Shown: positions 2,421 to 63,859 of the stretch, piece after piece
Layout: each line of letters starts with the position of its first letter
How positions within the stretch are numbered: position 1 is the stretch's first letter
NCBI GenBank assembly: GCA_951406725.2
Contig: OX597835.1
Coordinates: 39,184,001 to 39,248,000, forward strand
DNA: 64,000 nucleotides
Reading direction: 5' to 3'
Source: Octopus vulgaris
Taxonomy: Eukaryota
Made by a program: the position numbers and the translations under genes
Notes under the pieces: generated by a model
Databases searched by the model: none
Told to the model about the DNA's origin: nothing
Seen by the model: the letters and a program-made list of their open reading frames with translations, nothing else

Positions 2421-2575
2421 TTTCTGAGGAATCTAATGCTCTCAAGATTAATCAGCCGAAATTGCGAGGATGATCCGGTTCTTGACTGAAGATTAAAAGC
2501 TTCGAATGACCCGTCCGTGTTTTTTGTATCATTTATTTGGATGTTTTGCGTTCTTGTCCCATTTTGTATTTTACA
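2421..2575 (+). repeat. Diverged solo 3' fragment of the 844-bp array family
   Basis: ctcaagattaatcagccgaaatt...gatgatccggttcttgactgaaga...ttcgaatg matches the array unit; flanked by (TACA)n and (TA)n. Confidence 0.85.
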
Positions 2576-6820: not shown

Positions 6821-6905
6821 TTTCCTGCTGATGAGAGCTTCGCCTAGTAAATTATTTTATTCGCTGAAGATAGCTTGAAAATGTTTTTTTATTTTACATT
6901 CCCTT
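6821..6905 (+). ncRNA. Hammerhead ribozyme-like motif (incomplete; stem I not formed)
   Basis: CUGAUGA 6828-6834, stem II GAGCU/AGCUU (6835-6839/6872-6876), GAAA 6877-6880, stem III AUGU/ACAU, UC at 6900-6901. Confidence 0.45.
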
Positions 6906-6998: not shown

Positions 6999-7105
<107 letters not shown>

Positions 7106-7114
7106 ATATGTTTG

Positions 7115-7420
7115 GAGAGACGGAAGATGGAAGATACGAGATTTTTTTATTAATCACTACAATCGTTTCGAGACATCTAGCATCGATCCCTCATGGGTGG
7201 GATACTTAACAACTGGTTCAGGAACATCCGACGGGGCAGATGTTTCTCTTCGGTTGAGAAATAGATATAACACGTTAAAATAACAGTTCCACAATGTATC
7301 TTCTCAAAGCAACATTATATAGCTTCATTTATATAGAAGGTTAATAATAAAGTAACAGATGCAAAAAAGAAACGGACACTCAATACAGCGAAAAAAAGTA
7401 TTAATATAACCGTTAACGGA
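7115..7420 (-). repeat. Putative Penelope pseudo-LTR (3' copy), inverted relative to 8115-8432
   Basis: Shares gatccctca.gggtgggatacttaacaactggttcagga and atagatataac.cgttaaaataaca with the reverse complement of 8115-8432. Confidence 0.65.
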
Positions 7421-7649
7421 TATGGATGTATAAACGCCTTTGCGTATGTTGTATGGCGCATGTACACTCGCTCATACAAGCATCCACAAAGATGTACGCA
7501 TATGCACACGTGTGGTTTGGCGCACATACGTTCACCTAGCGAATTAAATAGCTACTTGATGTTTATAAGAACAGGGAGGTTAGAGCTAAATTTAATTCAT
7601 CCATGCTTTAAGGTGAATTATGCTAACAATTACTCAAATTCATTTTCAC

Positions 7650-8075
7650 TGCATTATGCGAAAGTGTATTTATATGCATATAAGCATCTCCAGAGCCTTG
7701 CAGAAATTTTATTAATGGTCTTTTATTAATGGACCACAGAATAGACAAGGATTCCTCGGAGCAGATTCGGCATCTCCTGGAAATGATATTATATAGTTAT
7801 TCGTGCCTTACTATGGACCAAGTTATGTTAAACTTAATTTTATCTTCCTTCAGTCGCCACACAAAATCGGCCAAAGATGTTGAATGTCTCTTTTTAATTT
7901 TCTTAAAGCTGGTGTCATGGTTGCAATAATGATTCTTGAATGAATCAGCCGTTACCCCAATGTAAGCATACACACTTCCCCTTATGTGTAAGGTACATTT
8001 ATATACAACATTTGTACTCATACAGAGGTTCATCAATGGGCATTTTGATTTTTCTCTGCATGTGCATTTATTATA
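7650..8075 (-). pseudogene. Penelope-like retroelement GIY-YIG endonuclease fragment (5'-truncated, in-frame stop at 7797-7799)
   Basis: CTCREKSKCPLMNLCMSTNVVYKC...YIGVTADSFKNHYCNHDTSF...STSLADFVWRLK...ITWSIV; beyond the stop the frame continues LYNIISRRCRICSEE. This matches the Penelope CxC..CPL..C / VVY..YIG / H..SF / CxxC..E pattern. Confidence 0.88.
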
Positions 8076-8114
8076 TATATTTGTATATATGACAGTTCTG
8101 ACTTCATTTTCCGA

Positions 8115-8432
8115 CGTTGTTACCGTGTTATCTATATTACAATTATTTCTGCTATCACGATTTAGCCGTATCTGGTACATTGTTACATCTCTTATTTTAT
8201 TATTGATATTCTATATAAATGAAGTTCTATCCATTAATTTGATGCTTTTCTTCACAGGAACTGAGAAGATACATTGCAGAATTGTTATTTTAACGAGTTA
8301 TATCTATTAGCCGAAGAGACACATCTGCACCATCGGATGCTCCTGAACCAGTTGTTAAGTATCCCACCCGTGAGGGATCGAAACAATTGTAGTAATTAAT
8401 AAAGATTCTCGTATCTACTATCTTCCATCTCT
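8115..8432 (+). repeat. Putative inverted Penelope pseudo-LTR at the truncated 5' end
   Basis: Diverged inverted copy of 7115-7420; contains GAAAC-AATT-GTA, a hammerhead stem III-like motif (8380-8391). Confidence 0.65.
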
Positions 8433-8538
8433 CATTAGCCAAATACATAACAAACACTGTGAAAGTGATCATACATTATCAGTAAGCTACCAGATAAAAG
8501 CTATTCATGTTATTATCTACTAACTGTGTGTGTGTGTG

Positions 8539-11979: not shown

Positions 11980-13080
11980 ACATGACTGTGGGAATAAGTT
12001 TATTTCCTCAGTTCGGTTCCCCTGCGTGGCACCTTGAGTAAGTTGTCTTCTACGATTGCCACAGGTCGACCAAAGGCTTGTGAATGACTTTGGGAGACGA
12101 AAACTGAAAAAAGCCCATTATATGTGTAGGAAAAACGTGAAGAAGGTTGTTGCAAAAAATGGAACGAGAAAAAGAAATGGAATCAAGAACTACGATTCTA
12201 GTCCTCCTTGATTGCAAAAAGTTCATTGGTTTAAAACAAAATAACAGAAAATATGTCGCAGTCTGGGAGCCAGTAACTCAATCCAGAGTGGGTGGTGCCC
12301 TCCAGTTCGATAAACGAAACTTTTCCATATAACTACACCTGCTAAAAATTTCAGATCTCGAATTAAGCAATGTGTTGGAATTGCTGGATCGAACAAGAAA
12401 ATATGGCAGACTCTGGTCGACCCGAGGTGACACTTGCCCAAGCTACTACGCAGTGGGACTGAACCCAAAATCATGTGGTTGGAAGGCAAATTTCTTGCTA
12501 CACAGCCTACGCCTGCACCTAACAGCATTCTCTTAATTGTGGGTTAATACTTCAATATGTTCGGTTTCGTCTTCCTTTGTTCTAGGGTCGAGAAACTAAA
12601 GTGCCAGCTGAGAACTGTATTTGTAATAGACGCGTGCTTTCGGGTCCAATCCCACTGCGCGGCACATTGGATAAGAGTCTCCTACTTTAGCCCCGAGCCA
12701 ATCAGTGCCTTGTGAGTAAATTTTCTTTCTTTTACTTGCTTCAGGCATTTGACTGCTGCCATGCTGGAGCACCACCTTTAGTCCAACAAATCGACCCGAG
12801 GACTTATTCTTTTTGAGTCTAGTACTTATCCTATCAGTCTCTTTTGCCGAACTGCTGAGTTACGGGGGCGTAACACACTAACATCGGTTGTCAAGCGATG
12901 ATGGGGGACAAATACAGACACACAAACATATACACGCACATACCAAATCCACTCACAAGGCTTTGGTCGGCCCGAGGCTATAGTAGAAAGCACTTGCCCA
13001 AAGTGTCACTCAGTGGGACTGAACCCGGAACCATGCAATTGGAAAGTAAGCTTCTGACCACACAGCCACTCCTGCACCTA
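11980..13080. mobile_element. Cluster of family A SINE fragments (11980-12125 +, 12410-12520 -, 12640-12720 +, 12725-13080 -)
   Basis: Repeated matches to cccactgcgtggcaccttgg and gctggagcacc modules. Confidence 0.8.
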
Positions 13081-13100
13081 TGATATATATATGTATATAT

Positions 13101-14531
13101 TTCAGTCAAGAACCGGATCATCGTAGTAATTTCGGCTGATTAATCTTGAGATTACTAGATCACGGCCAGCCCTCCAAGAAAAACCAAGCAACGAGCATTA
13201 GAAAAACTAAGCTGGAAGCGTAGATTTCCTGGAAGAAGGATCGAATGCATACGAACACCAGGACAGCAAAAGGGACAGATATAAAAAAACAAAAAACAAT
13301 AATGGAATACAGAAACATGAAATACAGAAGCATTAACGGTGAAAACAACAGTGTCTTACGACTGGTAACAAGCAAACAAATTTTTTCTCTGGCGCAATGG
13401 AAAAAGCCTTTATAGTGGCGGACGAAAACAGCGATGTTAACAGAACGAGGGTCAGAGGCTGAAAGGCAGATTTCGGCCAACAGTCACGTGACAGAGAAGA
13501 GGAAAAGAAAAGAAAGAGAAGCAAAGGAAGAGAGAGAGAGGAGGGACAAACGCAACAAAGAGAGAGAAGAGAGAGAAAGAAGGAATCAGAGAGGAGAAGG
13601 GATGGGTGTCGAAGAATGACCTGTGAGTGCAGAGCGAGACAAAGAAATAGGAGGGTAGTGGAAGACTAGACCAAAGAATCAGAGGAAAGAGAAGAGAAAA
13701 AGAGGATGAGTAGAGAGAAAAGAGAGAGAGGGGGACAGATCAAGTAAAAATGAGAGAGAGAGAGAGACAAACAGAGAGTCGTACCAATTATTAAGAATAT
13801 GTGCTCACATAAATGTTAAGGGGGGTACGGGGCGCCTGGAATATATGTTAAGGTATGTAGAAAAATACAACATGGACAAGAACGTATAACTCTTAGAAGA
13901 CGACACAATAAACACGGACAGGACATTCGAAACCCTCAGTCTTCAGTCAAGAACCGGATCATCGTAGTAATTTCGGCTGATTAATCTTGAGATTACTAGA
14001 TCACGGCCAGCCCTCCAAGAAAAACCAAGCAACGAGCATTAGAAAAACTAAGCTGGAAGCGTAGATTTCCTGGAAGAAGGATCGAATGCATACGAACACC
14101 AGGACAGCAAAAGGGACAGATATAAAAAAACAAAAAACAATAATGGAATACAGAAACATGAAATACAGAAGCATTAACGGTGAAAACAACAGTGTCTTAC
14201 GACTGGTAACAAGCAAACAAATTTTTTCTCTGGCGCAATGGAAAAAGCCTTTATAGTGGCGGACGAAAACAGCGATGTTAACAGAACGAGGGTCAGAGGC
14301 TGAAAGGCAGATTTCGGCCAACAGTCACGTGACAGAGAAGAGGGAAAAGAAAAGAAAGAGAAGCAAAGGAAGAGAGAGAGAGAGGAGGGACAAACGCAAC
14401 AAAGAGAGAGAAGAGAGAGAAAGAAGGAATCAGAGAGGAGAAGGGATGGGTGTCGAAGAATGACCTGTGAGTGCAGAGCGAGACAAAGAAATAGGAGGGT
14501 AGTGGAAGACTAGACCAAAGAATCAGAGGAA
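13101..14531 (-). repeat. Inverted arm of the 844-bp tandem array (~1.7 units)
   Basis: ttcagtcaagaaccggatc at 13101 and 13942; reverse complement of 14724 to ~16160 apart from microsatellite indels. Confidence 0.97.
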
Positions 14532-17500
14532 GTTGTATTTTTCTACATACCTTAACATATATTCCAGGCGCCCCGTACCCCCCTTAACATTTATGTGAGC
14601 ACATATTCTTAATAATTGGTACGACTCTCTGTTTGTCTCTCTCTCTCTCTCATTTTTACTTGATCTCTTGATCTGTCCCCCTCTCTCTCTTTTCTCTCTA
14701 CTCATCCTCTTTTTCTCTTCTCTTTCCTCTGATTCTTTGGTCTAGTCTTCCACTACCCTCCTATTTCTTTGTCTCGCTCTGCACTCACAGGTCATTCTTC
14801 GACACCCATCCCTTCTCCTCTCTGATTCCTTCTTTCTCTCTCTTCTCTCTCTTTGTTGCGTTTGTCCCTCCTCTCTCTCTCTCTTCCTTTGCTTCTCTTT
14901 CTTTTCTTTTCCCTCTTCTCTGTCACGTGACTGTTGGCCGAAATCTGCCTTTCAGCCTCTGACCCTCGTTCTGTTAACATCGCTGTTTTCGTCCGCCACT
15001 ATAAAGGCTTTTTCCATTGCGCCAGAGAAAAAATTTGTTTGCTTGTTACCAGTCGTAAGACACTGTTGTTTTCACCGTTAATGCTTCTGTATTTCATGTT
15101 TCTGTATTCCATTATTGTTTTTTGTTTTTTTATATCTGTCCCTTTTGCTGTCCTGGTGTTCGTATGCATTCGATCCTTCTTCCAGGAAATCTACGCTTCC
15201 AGCTTAGTTTTTCTAATGCTCGTTGCTTGGTTTTTCTTGGAGGGCTGGCCGTGATCTAGTAATCTCAAGATTAATCAGCCGAAATTACTACGATGATCCG
15301 GTTCTTGACTGAAGACTGAGGGTTTCGAATGTCCTGTCCGTGTTTATTGTGTCGTCTTCTAAGAGTTATACGTTCTTGTCCATGTTGTATTTTTCTACAT
15401 ACCTTAACATATATTCCAGGCGCCCCGTACCCCCCTTAACATTTATGTGAGCACATATTCTTAATAATTGGTACGACTCTCTGTTTGTCTCTCTCTCTCT
15501 CTCATTTTTACTTGATCTGTCCCCCTCTCTCTCTTTTCTCTCTACTCATCCTCTTTTTCTCTTCTCTTTCCTCTGATTCTTTGGTCTAGTCTTCCACTAC
15601 CCTCCTATTTCTTTGTCTCGCTCTGCACTCACAGGTCATTCTTCGACACCCATCCCTTCTCCTCTCTGATTCCTTCTTTCTCTCTCTTCTCTCTCTTTGT
15701 TGCGTTTGTCCCCCTCTCTCTCTCTCTCTCTTCCTTTGCTTCTCTTTCTTTTCTTTTCCCTCTTCTCTGTCACGTGACTGTTGGCCGAAATCTGCCTTTC
15801 AGCCTCTGACCCTCGTTCTGTTAACATCGCTGTTTTCGTCCGCCACTATAAAGGCTTTTTCCATTGCGCCAGAGAAAAAATTTGTTTGCTTGTTACCAGT
15901 CGTAAGACACTGTTGTTTTCACCGTTAATGCTTCTGTATTTCATGTTTCTGTATTCCATTATTGTTTTTTGTTTTTTTATATCTGTCCCTTTTGCTGTCC
16001 TGGTGTTCGTATGCATTCGATCCTTCTTCCAGGAAATCTACGCTTCCAGCTTAGTTTTTCTAATGCTCGTTGCTTGGTTTTTCTTGGAGGGCTGGCCGTG
16101 ATCTAGTAATCTCAAGATTAATCAGCCGAAATTACTACGATGATCCGGTTCTTGACTGAAGACTGAGGGTTTCGAATGTCCTGTCCGTGTTTATTGTGTC
16201 GTCTTCTAAGAGTTATACGTTCTTGTCCATGTTGTATTTTTCTACATACCTTAACATATATTCCAGGCGCCCCGTACCCCCCTTAACATTTATGTGAGCA
16301 CATATTCTTAATAATTGGTACGACTCTCTGTTTGTCTCTCTCTCTCTCTCATTTTTACTTGATCTGTCCCCCTCTCTCTCTTTTCTCTCTACTCATCCTC
16401 TTTTTCTCTTCTCTTTCCTCTGATTCTTTGGTCTAGTCTTCCACTACCCTCCTATTTCTTTGTCTCGCTCTGCACTCACAGGTCATTCTTCGACACCCAT
16501 CCCTTCTCCTCTCTGATTCCTTCTTTCTCTCTCTTCTCTCTCTTTGTTGCGTTTGTCCCTCCTCTCTCTCTCTCTTCCTTTGCTTCTCTTTCTTTTCTTT
16601 TCCCTCTTCTCTGTCACGTGACTGTTGGCCGAAATCTGCCTTTCAGCCTCTGACCCTCGTTCTGTTAACATCGCTGTTTTCGTCCGCCACTATAAAGGCT
16701 TTTTCCATTGCGCCAGAGAAAAAATTTGTTTGCTTGTTACCAGTCGTAAGACACTGTTGTTTTCACCGTTAATGCTTCTGTATTTCATGTTTCTGTATTC
16801 CATTATTGTTTTTTGTTTTTTTATATCTGTCCCTTTTGCTGTCCTGGTGTTCGTATGCATTCGATCCTTCTTCCAGGAAATCTACGCTTCCAGCTTAGTT
16901 TTTCTAATGCTCGTTGCTTGGTTTTTCTTGGAGGGCTGGCCGTGATCTAGTAATCTCAAGATTAATCAGCCGAAATTACTACGATGATCCGGTTCTTGAC
17001 TGAAGACTGAGGGTTTCGAATGTCCTGTCCGTGTTTATTGTGTCGTCTTCTAAGAGTTATACGTTCTTGTCCATGTTGTATTTTTCTACATACCTTAACA
17101 TATATTCCAGGCGCCCCGTACCCCCCTTAACATTTATGTGAGCACATATTCTTAATAATTGGTACGACTCTCTGTTTGTCTCTCTCTCTCTCTCATTTTT
17201 ACTTGATCTGTCCCCCTCTCTCTCTTTTCTCTCTACTCATCCTCTTTTTCTCTTCTCTTTCCTCTGATTCTTTGGTCTAGTCTTCCACTACCCTCCTATT
17301 TCTTTGTCTCGCTCTGCACTCACAGGTCATTCTTCGACACCCATCCCTTCTCCTCTCTGATTCCTTCTTTCTCTCTCTTCTCTCTCTTTGTTGCGTTTGT
17401 CCCTCCTCTCTCTCTCTCTCTCTTCCTTTGCTTCTCTTTCTTTTCTTTTCCCTCTTCTCTGTCACGTGACTGTTGGCCGAAATCTGCCTTTCAGCCTCTG

Positions 17501-20474
17501 ACCCTCGTTCTGTTAACATCGCTGTTTTCGTCCGCCACTATAAAGGCTTTTTCCATTGCGCCAGAGAAAAAAATTTGTTTGCTTGTTACCAGTCGTAAGA
17601 CACTGTTGTTTTCACCGTTAATGCTTCTGTATTTCATGTTTCTGTATTCCATTATTGTTTTTTGTTTTTTTATATCTGTCCCTTTTGCTGTCCTGGTGTT
17701 CGTATGCATTCGATCCTTCTTCCAGGAAATCTACGCTTCCAGCTTAGTTTTTCTAATGCTCGTTGCTTGGTTTTTCTTGGAGGGCTGGCCGTGATCTAGT
17801 AATCTCAAGATTAATCAGCCGAAATTACTACGATGATCCGGTTCTTGACTGAAGACTGAGGGTTTCGAATGTCCTGTCCGTGTTTATTGTGTCGTCTTCT
17901 AAGAGTTATACGTTCTTGTCCATGTTGTATTTTTCTACATACCTTAACATATATTCCAGGCGCCCCGTACCCCCCTTAACATTTATGTGAGCACATATTC
18001 TTAATAATTGGTACGACTCTCTGTTTGTCTCTCTCTCTCTCTCATTTTTACTTGATCTGTCCCCCTCTCTCTCTTTTCTCTCTACTCATCCTCTTTTTCT
18101 CTTCTCTTTCCTCTGATTCTTTGGTCTAGTCTTCCACTACCCTCCTATTTCTTTGTCTCGCTCTGCACTCACAGGTCATTCTTCGACACCCATCCCTTCT
18201 CCTCTCTGATTCCTTCTTTCTCTCTCTTCTCTCTCTTTGTTGCGTTTGTCCCTCCTCTCTCTCTCTCTTCCTTTGCTTCTCTTTCTTTTCTTTTCCCTCT
18301 TCTCTGTCACGTGACTGTTGGCCGAAATCTGCCTTTCAGCCTCTGACCCTCGTTCTGTTAACATCGCTGTTTTCGTCCGCCACTATAAAGGCTTTTTCCA
18401 TTGCGCCAGAGAAAAAATTTGTTTGCTTGTTATCAGTCGTAAGACACTGTTGTTTTCACCGTTAATGCTTCTGTATTTCATGTTTCTGTATTCCATTATT
18501 GTTTTTTGTTTTTTTATATCTGTCCCTTTTGCTGTCCTGGTGTTCGTATGCATTCGATCCTTCTTCCAGGAAATCTACGCTTCCAGCTTAGTTTTTCTAA
18601 TGCTCGTTGCTTGGTTTTTCTTGGAGGGCTGGCCGTGATCTAGTAATCTCAAGATTAATCAGCCGAAATTACTACGATGATCCGGTTCTTGACTGAAGAC
18701 TGAGGGTTTCGAATGTCCTGTCCGTGTTTATTGTGTCGTCTTCTAAGAGTTATACGTTCTTGTCCATGTTGTATTTTTCTACATACCTTAACATATATTC
18801 CAGGCGCCCCGTACCCCCCTTAACATTTATGTGAGCACATATTCTTAATAATTGGTACGACTCTCTGTTTGTCTCTCTCTCTCTCTCATTTTTACTTGAT
18901 CTGTCCCCCTCTCTCTCTTTTCTCTCTACTCATCCTCTTTTTCTCTTCTCTTTCCTCTGATTCTTTGGTCTAGTCTTCCACTACCCTCCTATTTCTTTGT
19001 CTCGCTCTGCACTCACAGGTCATTCTTCGACACCCATCCCTTCTCCTCTCTGATTCCTTCTTTCTCTCTCTTCTCTCTCTTTGTTGCGTTTGTCCCTCTC
19101 TCTCTCTCTCTTCCTTTGCTTCTCTTTCTTTTCTTTTTCCTCTTCTCTGTCACGTGACTGTTGGCCGAAATCTGCCTTTCAGCCTCTGACCCTCGTTCTG
19201 TTAACATCGCTGTTTTCGTCCGCCACTATAAAGGCTTTTTCCATTGCGCCAGAGAAAAAATTTGTTTGCTTGTTACCAGTCGTAAGACACTGTTGTTTTC
19301 ACCGTTAATGCTTCTGTATTTCATGTTTCTGTATTCCATTATTGTTTTTTGTTTTTTTATATCTGTCCCTTTTGCTGTCCTGGTGTTCGTATGCATTCGA
19401 TCCTTCTTCCAGGAAATCTACGCTTCCAGCTTAGTTTTTCTAATGCTCGTTGCTTGGTTTTTCTTGGAGGGCTGGCCGTGATCTAGTAATCTCAAGATTA
19501 ATCAGCCGAAATTACTACGATGATCCGGTTCTTGACTGAAGACTGAGGGTTTCGAATGTCCTGTCCGTGTTTATTGTGTCGTCTTCTAAGAGTTATACGT
19601 TCTTGTCCATGTTGTATTTTTCTACATACCTTAACATATATTCCAGGCGCCCCGTACCCCCCTTAACATTTATGTGAGCACATATTCTTAATAATTGGTA
19701 CGACTCTCTGTTTGTCTCTCTCTCTCTCTCATTTTTACTTGATCTGTCCCCCTCTCTCTCTTTTCTCTCTACTCATCCTCTTTTTCTCTTCTCTTTCCTC
19801 TGATTCTTTGGTCTAGTCTTCCACTACCCTCCTATTTCTTTGTCTCGCTCTGCACTCACAGGTCATTCTTCGACACCCATCCCTTCTCCTCTCTGATTCC
19901 TTCTTTCTCTCTCTTCTCTCTCTTTGTTGCGTTTGTCCCTCCTCTCTCTCTCTCTTCCTTTGCTTCTCTTTCTTTTCTTTTCCCTCTTCTCTGTCACGTG
20001 ACTGTTGGCCGAAATCTGCCTTTCAGCCTCTGACCCTCGTTCTGTTAACATCGCTGTTTTCGTCCGCCACTATAAAGGCTTTTTCCATTGCGCCAGAGAA
20101 AAAATTTGTTTGCTTGTTACCAGTCGTAAGACACTGTTGTTTTCACCGTTAATGCTTCTGTATTTCATGTTTCTGTATTCCATTATTGTTTTTTGTTTTT
20201 TTATATCTGTCCCTTTTGCTGTCCTGGTGTTCGTATGCATTCGATCCTTCTTCCAGGAAATCTACGCTTCCAGCTTAGTTTTTCTAATGCTCGTTGCTTG
20301 GTTTTTCTTGGAGGGCTGGCCGTGATCTAGTAATCTCAAGATTAATCAGCCGAAATTACTACGATGATCCGGTTCTTGACTGAAGACTGAGGGTTTCGAA
20401 TGTCCTGTCCGTGTTTATTGTGTCGTCTTCTAAGAGTTATACGTTCTTGTCCATGTTGTATTTTTCTACATACC

Positions 20475-20478
<4 letters not shown>
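14532..20478 (+). repeat. Seven near-identical direct copies of a non-coding 843-852 bp unit plus 24 bp
   Basis: gttgtatttttctacatacc starts at 14532, 15384, 16231, 17075, 17924, 18768, 19611 and 20455; ends in (TA)n. Confidence 0.98.
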
Positions 20479-20569
<91 letters not shown>

Positions 20570-62359: not shown

Positions 62360-63680
62360 GTGTTTATCCATTCATTCAATATCTACACACTTCGTCTATC
62401 TATCCAGTCAACATCTACACACTGTGTCTATAAATCCACTCTACATCTACACATTGTGTCCATCTATCCTGTCAACATCTATACACTCTATCTACATGAG
62501 GTGAAAATCTATACCCTCTGTCGATCTATCCAGTCAGCATCTACACGCTGTCTTTCTATCTAGTCAACATCTACACACTGCATCAATCTTGTCAACATCT
62601 ACACTCTACGTCTATCTATCCAGGCAAAATCTACACAATATGGCTATCTATCCAGTTAACAACTACGTGCTGTGTCAATATTTCTATCTTTCCAGTCAAC
62701 ATCTACACCACACAGTGTCAATATTTCCAGTCTATCTTTCCTGTCAATATCTACACACTGTGTCTATGTTTCCAGTCAATATCTACACACTGTGTCAATA
62801 TTTCCTGTCAATATCTACACAAAGTGTCAATATTTCCAGTCAATATCTACACACTGTGTCAATATTTCCAGTCAATATCTACACACTATGTCAATATTTC
62901 CAGTCAATATCTACACACTGTGTCAATATTTCCAGTCAATATCTACACACTATGTCAATATTTCCAGTCAATATCTACACACTGTGTCTATCTTTCCTAT
63001 CAATATTTACACACAGTGTCAATATTCCTAGTCAATATCTATACACTGTGTCAATATTTCCTGTCAATATCTACACAAAGTGTCAATATTTCCAGTCAAT
63101 ATCTACACACTGTGTCAATATTTCCAGTCAATATCTACACACTATGTCAATATTTCCAGTCAATATCTACACACTGTGTCAATATTTCCAGTCAATATCT
63201 ACACACTATGTCAATATTTCCAGTCAATATCTACACACTGTGTCTATCTTTCCTGCCAATATCTACACACTGTGTCTATCTTTCCTATCAATATTTACAC
63301 ACAGTGTCAATATTTCTAGTCAATATCTACACACTGTGTCAATATTTCCAGTCAATATCTACACACAGTGTCTATCTTTCCTGCCAATATCTACACACAG
63401 TGTCTATGTTTCCAGTCAATATCTACACACTGTCAATATTTTCAGTCAATATCTACACACTGTGTCTATCTACACTCATAACATTTGCATTCTCTGTCTA
63501 TCAGTCCTGTCAGCGTCTACATACTGCGTCTATTTAACCAGTCAACATCAAGATATTGTGTGTGTATCTATCCAATCAAAATCTACACACTGTATCTATT
63601 TATGCAGTCACCATCTGTACTGTGAGTATATCAGCTCATCTACACTCTGCGTCTGTAACTCTAGTCAACATGTTCTGTGC
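62360..63680 (+). repeat. 32-bp minisatellite TTTCCAGTCAATATCTACACACTGTGTCAATA with a homogeneous core (~62720-63450) and decayed flanks
   Basis: Visible 32-nt period; the translation repeats every 32 aa (3 units). Confidence 0.95.
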
Positions 63681-63859
63681 AAACACACACACATACACAC
63701 ACAAACACACTCAAACACACAAACATACGTTGTTGACATAATTCTGTTAGGGAAATAACTCATGTTAAATTGTAGATATACTACCACAAAAATTACAGTG
63801 AAACGTATTAATGCCTATACATACATACATACATGCATACATACATACATACTACATAA

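Follow-up and report, generated by a model that had tools for sequence, protein, structure and literature searches.

The window analysed here, a 64,000-nucleotide (64-kb) stretch of the Octopus vulgaris genome (contig OX597835.1, positions 39,184,001 to 39,248,000), contains at 13101–20478 a fold-back array of an 844-bp repeat unit, in which self-comparison of the window resolves 1.7 inverted and 7 direct units arranged head-to-head. A rearranged hammerhead-type motif is present in every full unit, and the array is probably a non-autonomous passenger of the Naiad clade of Penelope-like elements (PLEs). The parts of the array are listed below in window coordinates, with unit numbering starting at 16233.

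13101–14531, minus strand: inverted arm, 1,431 bp or 1.70 units, comprising unit positions 183–844 and then 1–772
14532–20478, plus strand: direct arm, 5,947 bp, comprising 7 units plus 24 bp
14534, 15386, 16233, 17077, 17926, 18770, 19613 and 20457, plus strand: anchors of the direct-arm units
16233–17076, plus strand: reference unit, 844 bp, non-coding, 70% pyrimidine
14531–14532, unstranded: head-to-head (5′-to-5′) junction, at which unit position 183 meets 843
13083–13100, unstranded: left target run, an 18-bp TA tract interrupted by a single G, where a short interspersed nuclear element (SINE)-type repeat has its 3′ tail
20478–20564, unstranded: right target run, (AT)43.5
14659–14674, plus strand: 8-bp duplication, seen in no unit but the first of the direct arm
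18433, plus strand: C>T substitution, T in one unit and C in the other 8 of 9 copies
16687–16700, plus strand: TATA-like box, at about unit position 455–468

The units are 98.6–99.8% alike to the query unit, and those of the direct arm measure 852, 847, 844, 849, 844, 843 and 844 bp in order, followed by the 24 bp of the arm's terminal overlap. Read on the minus strand, the inverted arm runs from unit position 183 through 844 to 772, and the direct arm runs from 843 to 866 (equivalent to 22) after seven turns. The two arms meet abruptly at 14531/14532 with zero microhomology and no inserted base, and self-comparison bears out the layout that the original prediction, made by reading the letters of the window, had described. 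Their 3′ ends point outward onto TA runs, that of the inverted arm being cut inside the CUGAAGA of its outermost motif copy and adjoining the left run. Of the (TA)n tracts predicted at both outer ends, the right one stands as described, whereas the left is merely the 18-bp run interrupted by a G. The direct arm starts and ends at nearly the same unit position (843 and 866), as predicted; the inverted arm stops 94 unit positions earlier (772 versus 866).

The differences between units include those foreseen, namely the 8-bp duplication, the C>T change at 18433 and indels, to which two further apparent substitutions have to be added, both bordering homopolymer or microsatellite runs (in the units at 15386 and 18770); the remaining differences are indels in such runs. 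No substitution is common to a subset of units, a comparison of very low power with one clear substitution. The sense strand of the unit is 70% pyrimidine with a GC content of 42%, and its longest ATG-initiated open reading frames (ORFs) span 57 and 62 codons, in agreement with the prediction of a pyrimidine-biased unit lacking a credible ORF. The TATA-like box, a possible internal promoter, looks like one that several bivalve Naiad consensus sequences carry close to their 5′ end, a likeness seen by eye and of low weight. The array looks young, and that it is real as a locus can be stated with high confidence.

The hammerhead-type motif occurs nine times in the array, once incompletely.

16934–17006, plus strand: rearranged hammerhead-type motif, example copy, predicted by descriptor match
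15243, 16090, 17783, 18627, 19470 and 20314 (start positions), plus strand: further motif copies
13940–14012, minus strand: complete motif copy in the inverted arm, with its predicted cut at 13991
13101–13171, minus strand: ninth motif copy, ending inside CUGAAGA at the left end of the array

In order, the motif consists of the 5′ strand of stem II, helix X, stem III, the predicted cut, the 5′ strand of stem I, a linker, the 3′ strand of stem II, GAAA (16972 in the example copy), stem III, helix X, the 3′ strand of stem I and CUGAAGA (17000), with the predicted cut of the example copy after 16955, at unit position 723/724. The nucleotides conserved in hammerheads (CUGANGA, GAAA and UH) are complete in every full unit, the stems I–III being adjacent. 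Stem I, stem II, stem III and helix X comprise 6, 6, 7 and about 8 bp, respectively, helix X having a bulge, and are arranged in a knotted order; the A15.1–U16.1 and G10.1–C11.1 pairs are present.

A first descriptor, defined by the order cut site, GAAA, CUGANGA, gave eight matches in the window, all of them complete array units, and none at the 15 other CUGANGA sites. Six of 200,000 shuffles passed its relaxed form and none passed as observed, and the full descriptor, to which helix X and the upstream strand of stem II had been added, was passed by none of 300,000 shuffles even when relaxed with all four helices set to 4 bp, counts that are flattered by descriptors written after the sequence had been seen. 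A scan of six block orders across the window found the knotted order alone, the permutation scan detected no canonical type I, II or III hammerhead in the 64 kb, and an Rfam search of the same 64 kb returned nothing at the gathering score, the unit giving one chance match (E 4.8). Unlike strict type-SGC hammerheads, the motif has no stem II 5′ strand right after CUGANGA, the best downstream pairing being 4 bp after a 5-nt insertion; this pairing was a candidate for stem II until inspection of the Naiad 3′ ends led to the upstream 6-bp strand in its place. Stems I and II are knots, beyond what the folding program can form. In the folded circular monomer the pair probability is 0.80–0.97 for stem III and 0.56–0.61 for helix X; plain folding of the unit's 3′ region on both strands showed no stability beyond that of shuffles (z of 0.4–2.8 on the unstable side).

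A relative of the unit lies on its own near the start of the window.

2421–2575, plus strand: diverged solo relative of the unit's 3′ end, ending on a TA run

It aligns to the unit at 2431–2572 (82% over 142 bp, E 3e-33), and its termination against the TA run was confirmed. Beyond the window, words of the unit sampled from 14900–15500, with the unit boundary included, are present at shares of 0.78–0.94 in 18 of 24 listed sequencing runs from 8 studies and one organism, each of the 18 thus holding at least 78% of them; the share in run X20 is 0.06. The unit is a multi-copy family with head-to-tail continuity and is not confined to a single locus. Scans for homologues returned 0 and 4 loci in viral collections, 2 loci in metagenomes and 0 in prokaryote genomes, and the six viral and metagenome loci were dropped as chance, the matches spanning just 17–25 bp.

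Alignment to the array used the assembled contigs of 4 of the 24 runs, with alleles and junctions listed above 2 in 100. In run X8, 2,074 contigs aligned at 80–100%, of which 749 at 99% or above and then 408, 608 and 309 in the lower bands, with the greatest depth over 13098–13157. A 429-nt contig of run X1 passes the unit boundary at about 13848 and wraps round without any difference, and a second organism's run, recorded as RNA, contains parts of the unit at 95% or above with a depth of 3–5; most of the 'RNA' labels of the runs are guesses, and assembled contigs cannot separate tandem DNA from circular RNA. Run X2 holds 0.94 of the unit words by index, yet only the motif core aligned, and one of its contigs (depth 6.5), at place 13145, shows a unit relative that folds back head-to-head within the motif, which may be a library artefact. 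At place 13365, the equivalent of the 18433 site, only A, or sense T, is listed, in runs X8, X1 and X19. The T of the single odd unit at 18433 is therefore exactly the allele of these runs, the other 8 of 9 array copies carrying C. Because both arms share the C allele, they derive from one source lineage.

Between the unit and the solo relative, 50 of 53 positions are identical in the motif core versus 54 of 80 behind the core (p 2e-4); the solo relative retains stem I, GAAA and CUGAAGA, and lacks the upstream stem II strand, with stem III broken. Among relatives in the runs, N7 is variable (A, G or U), with CUGA and GA kept in all but one listed copy. The upstream stem II strand is kept in the consensus of 23 X8 contigs, in which a change in stem III pairs with the 3′ strand of the solo relative, that is, between different copies. 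The motif is very probably a conserved hammerhead-type structure, and it is predicted, with moderate confidence, to be catalytically active and self-cutting.

Naiads use (TA)n targets, form partial tandems and bear an inverted 5′-truncated copy at the 5′ end (Craig 2021, PMC8557442). The array shares with them the (TA)n targets (the (AT)43.5 on the right, the interrupted 18-bp run on the left and the TA run of the solo relative), the tandem units with an inverted 5′-truncated copy at the 5′ side, and a 3′ tail rich in T and G that lies about 90 nt behind CUGANGA; it is unlike them in that its unit has no ORF and is 844 bp long, Naiads measuring 3.4–4.4 kb. A dispersed multi-copy family with no ORF over 62 codons, a feature of non-autonomous Naiad or PLE derivatives, is present, as seen in the X8 contigs and the solo copy. 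Multicopy head-to-tail forms are also found among the non-autonomous Chlamys elements such as MRC1, relatives of the Naiads (PMC8557442), which, unlike the array, belong to green algae, have no ribozyme reported and have a known partner.

Naiads were reported to be without canonical hammerheads, with only cores and an 'HHR half core' recorded (Craig 2021, PMC8557442). The last 330–400 nt of 50 of the approximately 54 consensus sequences of that study were compared with the motif by eye and without a control. The same motif order, in different letters and with all helices paired, was seen in 6 of the 50 3′ ends (Obim, Ovul, Amil, Anas, 3_Chem and 2_Movir, representing 4 independent lineages), with helix lengths of 4–6 bp for stem I, 4–6 for stem II, 5–13 for stem III and 5–9 for helix X, and an imperfect version in three more (Aacu, Esco and Bfor). 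Five nematode Naiads (1_Nbra, 2_Nbra, 3_Nbra, Hcon and Hpol) have an intact CSG order with block C unbroken and read as complete type-CSG hammerheads with a I–II helix; this order and that of the unit motif represent one knot, circularly permuted. The remaining 3′ ends viewed carry other motifs or none. At the same position, other conserved 3′ motifs are common to bivalve and hemichordate Naiads and some of the cnidarian ones. The 3′ end of 1_Movir is suggestive of a twister ribozyme. The Penelope-type, non-autonomous and retrozyme-like character assigned to the array by the original prediction is supported, and is narrowed to the Naiad clade by the TA targets, the head-to-head 5′-truncated inverted copy, the head-to-tail multi-copy family and the hammerhead-type motif.

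Knotted hammerheads of types SGC and CSG cut in vitro and, as stated by the authors who described them, occur in metatranscriptome and metagenome contigs and in no genome of known organisms; the CSG sequences known to that study were two, both metagenomic (Eckert 2023, PMC10085705). The unit motif is like these types in the order cut site, GAAA, CUGANGA, in the short linker between stems I and II, and in a fourth helix (helix X) that joins the other strands of stems I and II. It is unlike type SGC in that its stem II 5′ strand lies upstream, with the chain open between A9 and G10.1, and in that both stem III strands run into the fourth helix, a direct link that is hard to fit in the crystal structure according to Eckert 2023 (PMC10085705). 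The motif stands outside strict SGC membership, yet to judge by its predicted arrangement it would work like SGC. No report of permuted hammerheads in Naiads was found in the searchable literature, most subscription journals being outside its coverage.

Retrozymes have type I hammerheads and circular RNA as their defining features (Cervera and de la Pena 2020, PMC7229834, in the main text of which the word 'inverted' is absent), and have been tied to PLEs in a study that searched for type I only and gives unit lengths of 51–972 bp (Li 2026, 10.64898/2026.07.22.740005). Like the metazoan retrozymes without long terminal repeats, the unit forms non-coding, low-GC tandem repeats with one hammerhead-type motif each; its length is within the published span, and an array of 7 units is within the common range (Li 2026). 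A proposed dependence on PLEs and, in some retrozymes, dimer-dependent cutting are further possible likenesses. The unit differs from retrozymes in having no type I hammerhead and in its length, typical retrozyme units measuring 150–450 bp.

On balance we favour an account in which the array is a young non-autonomous Naiad derivative whose insertion into a TA run was likely the work of a Naiad enzyme acting in trans, and whose motif is predicted to cut multimers. The arrays would be transcribed, as suggested by the unit's presence in the second organism's RNA-recorded run and in many runs guessed to be RNA. The motif would fold as a long hairpin of helix X and stem III, with a loop that holds the cut site and GAAA and a basal fork that holds CUGAAGA and the 5′ strand of stem II. 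Since helix X directly continues both stem III strands, we infer that the loop of one motif copy docks on the fork of another, so that cutting would need two copies. Multimeric transcripts would thereby be cut to unit-length RNA, which may be circularised as in retrozymes. The Naiad endonuclease would then nick (TA)n, and the Naiad reverse transcriptase (RT) would initiate at internal points some 90 nt and 0 nt behind CUGAAGA (near 866 and 772), making 7 and 1.7 copies of a template that is circular or multimeric. The two 5′ ends would then be joined head-to-head, the common outcome of Penelope-like insertions. For a Poseidon element, AT-rich cleavage and initiation at two internal sites have been shown (Frangieh 2024, PMC11167929), and minimal hammerheads acting as dimers for PLEs (Cervera 2014, PMC4209133).

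The single rolling-circle event of the original prediction stays a conjecture. The T at 18433 is a family allele that one circular template would leave unexplained without gene conversion or polishing error, and this odd unit points to a mixed multimeric template, a template change, gene conversion or a polishing error rather than to a simple spin on one circle. Multimeric or switched templates are our tentative choice, a single circle is conceivable, and later growth of the array at the DNA level is rather unlikely. In a wider and speculative form of the proposal, cephalopod and cnidarian Naiads and their non-coding passengers might use a seventh hammerhead arrangement, open at A9/G10.1 and working solely through docking of one copy's loop on another's fork. 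It might thus count copies and reduce multimeric transcripts to monomers that become circles, and the array might be a fresh reverse transcript of such an 844-nt RNA made by an unrecognised Naiad that is still active.

Several observations weigh against the favoured account, in addition to the 18433 allele, which speaks against a single circular template, and to descriptors composed with the sequence in view. Cephalopod Naiads were described as long-dead, inactive remnants (Craig 2021, PMC8557442). The unit core shares no 14-mer with the published Naiad consensus set, and the Naiad likenesses come from a comparison by eye that had no control. No autonomous partner was detected in the window or among the published Naiad consensus sequences. 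The 3′ ends of the array are offset by 94 nt, in place of the usual Naiad tail of 30–40 nt. The array's own junctions (the fold-back joint and the flank) and its C allele are not among the matches listed for the 4 runs at the threshold of 2 in 100, a threshold which, with 133 loose ends and 2,101 pieces outside the listing and the individuals behind the runs unspecified, makes the missing joint and flank junction uninformative. As for cutting, only 1 of 9 predicted Xenopus retrozyme dimers cut in vitro and 8 did not (Li 2026, 10.64898/2026.07.22.740005), and Eckert 2023 (PMC10085705) assume that block C, CUGANGA followed by stem II, is interrupted by at most 1–2 nt. The backbone of the motif has its opening between A9 and G10.1, folding of the whole unit does not go beyond that of its shuffles (−126.0 versus −123.6 ± 4.7), and in an 80-nt fragment a competing rod displaces helix X, whose probability falls to 0. 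In vitro, insertion did not depend on hammerhead cutting (Frangieh 2024, PMC11167929).

The alternative that survives best is an RNA structure that does not cut, in which a decayed or repurposed hammerhead serves as a binding or priming signal for a Naiad protein and a source array, read through into a transcript that stayed uncut, supplied the template of the multimer. The break at A9/G10.1 and the weak nested fold would suit such a structure, as would the positions of the array ends (183, 772, 843 and 866), none of which lies at the predicted cut 723/724, the one unit with the family allele, which a mixed source array would give, and the dispensability of cutting in vitro for PAc (PMC11167929). 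Exact retention of UH, GAAA and CUGANGA, with N7 alone varying, and likewise across Naiads of several phyla, is by contrast what catalysis would lead one to expect, and the form found in nematode Naiads is an intact CSG hammerhead; we regard the non-cutting structure as unlikely.

Less probable still is a transposon-derived satellite, in which one or two inserted copies grew at the DNA level, by unequal exchange or rolling-circle re-insertion, and were separately inverted. Head-to-tail context is common in the family, the allele shared by 8 of 9 copies is absent from the listings of the runs, as local homogenisation would produce, and local tandem amplification of PLE termini is discussed by Li 2026 (10.64898/2026.07.22.740005). 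Such growth is at odds with a private allele present in both arms, with 3′ ends that both lie on TA runs, with a 5′-to-5′ junction free of microhomology and, at very low power, with the lack of substitutions common to a subset of units, and the satellite appears quite improbable. An assembly or library artefact, with the fold-back or the copy number arising from a chimeric long read or a mis-join, is very improbable: most unit differences are of the homopolymer or dinucleotide type seen in long-read consensus errors, and the junction and C allele are not among the run matches listed, but a fold-back read mirrors itself, whereas here the two arms have starts separated by 184 unit positions, unequal copy numbers and distinct flanks with just ordinary interspersed repeats in common, at 75–86%, which excludes a simple fold-back read, and the unit, its tandem form and the motif occur in independent runs regardless of locus.

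Elsewhere in the window, an old Penelope-like remnant at 7092–8457 consists of head-to-head arms (7092–7367 and 8180–8457, 75% alike) enclosing a 137-codon GIY-YIG-like frame on the minus strand (7797–8210). A Pfam search of this frame gave no match; its look-alikes in a protein atlas score 0.93–0.97, and some of their clusters have GIY-YIG in 11–27% of members. The remnant was considered as the partner of the unit and rejected, having no sequence in common with it. Just to its left, two CUGANGA words stand close together at 6829–6885, where the permutation scan found no full hammerhead. SINE-type repeats are abundant (at 12630–13080 and in many other places, with 7 copies of one 3′-end motif counted), several of them in inverted pairs within 3 kb; we take them to be akin to octopus SINEs. 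Long open frames at 62500–63760 lie in a degenerate short-period tandem repeat and are probably not coding.

What appears new here is a retrozyme-like and likely Naiad-dependent repeat with a hammerhead arrangement that standard descriptors miss. If this holds, the claim that hammerheads are lacking in Naiads would fall, and the knotted hammerhead permutations, recorded until now from environmental contigs, would be placed in animal chromosomes. The finding would add an arrangement outside the six thought possible, and bring to light a retrozyme-like class of repeats that escapes type I descriptors. The 75-nt motif, with its exact predicted cut site, makes the role of hammerheads in PLEs testable. 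The near-identical array would imply an active Penelope-type enzyme in the cephalopod lineage, whose Naiads were called dead remnants.

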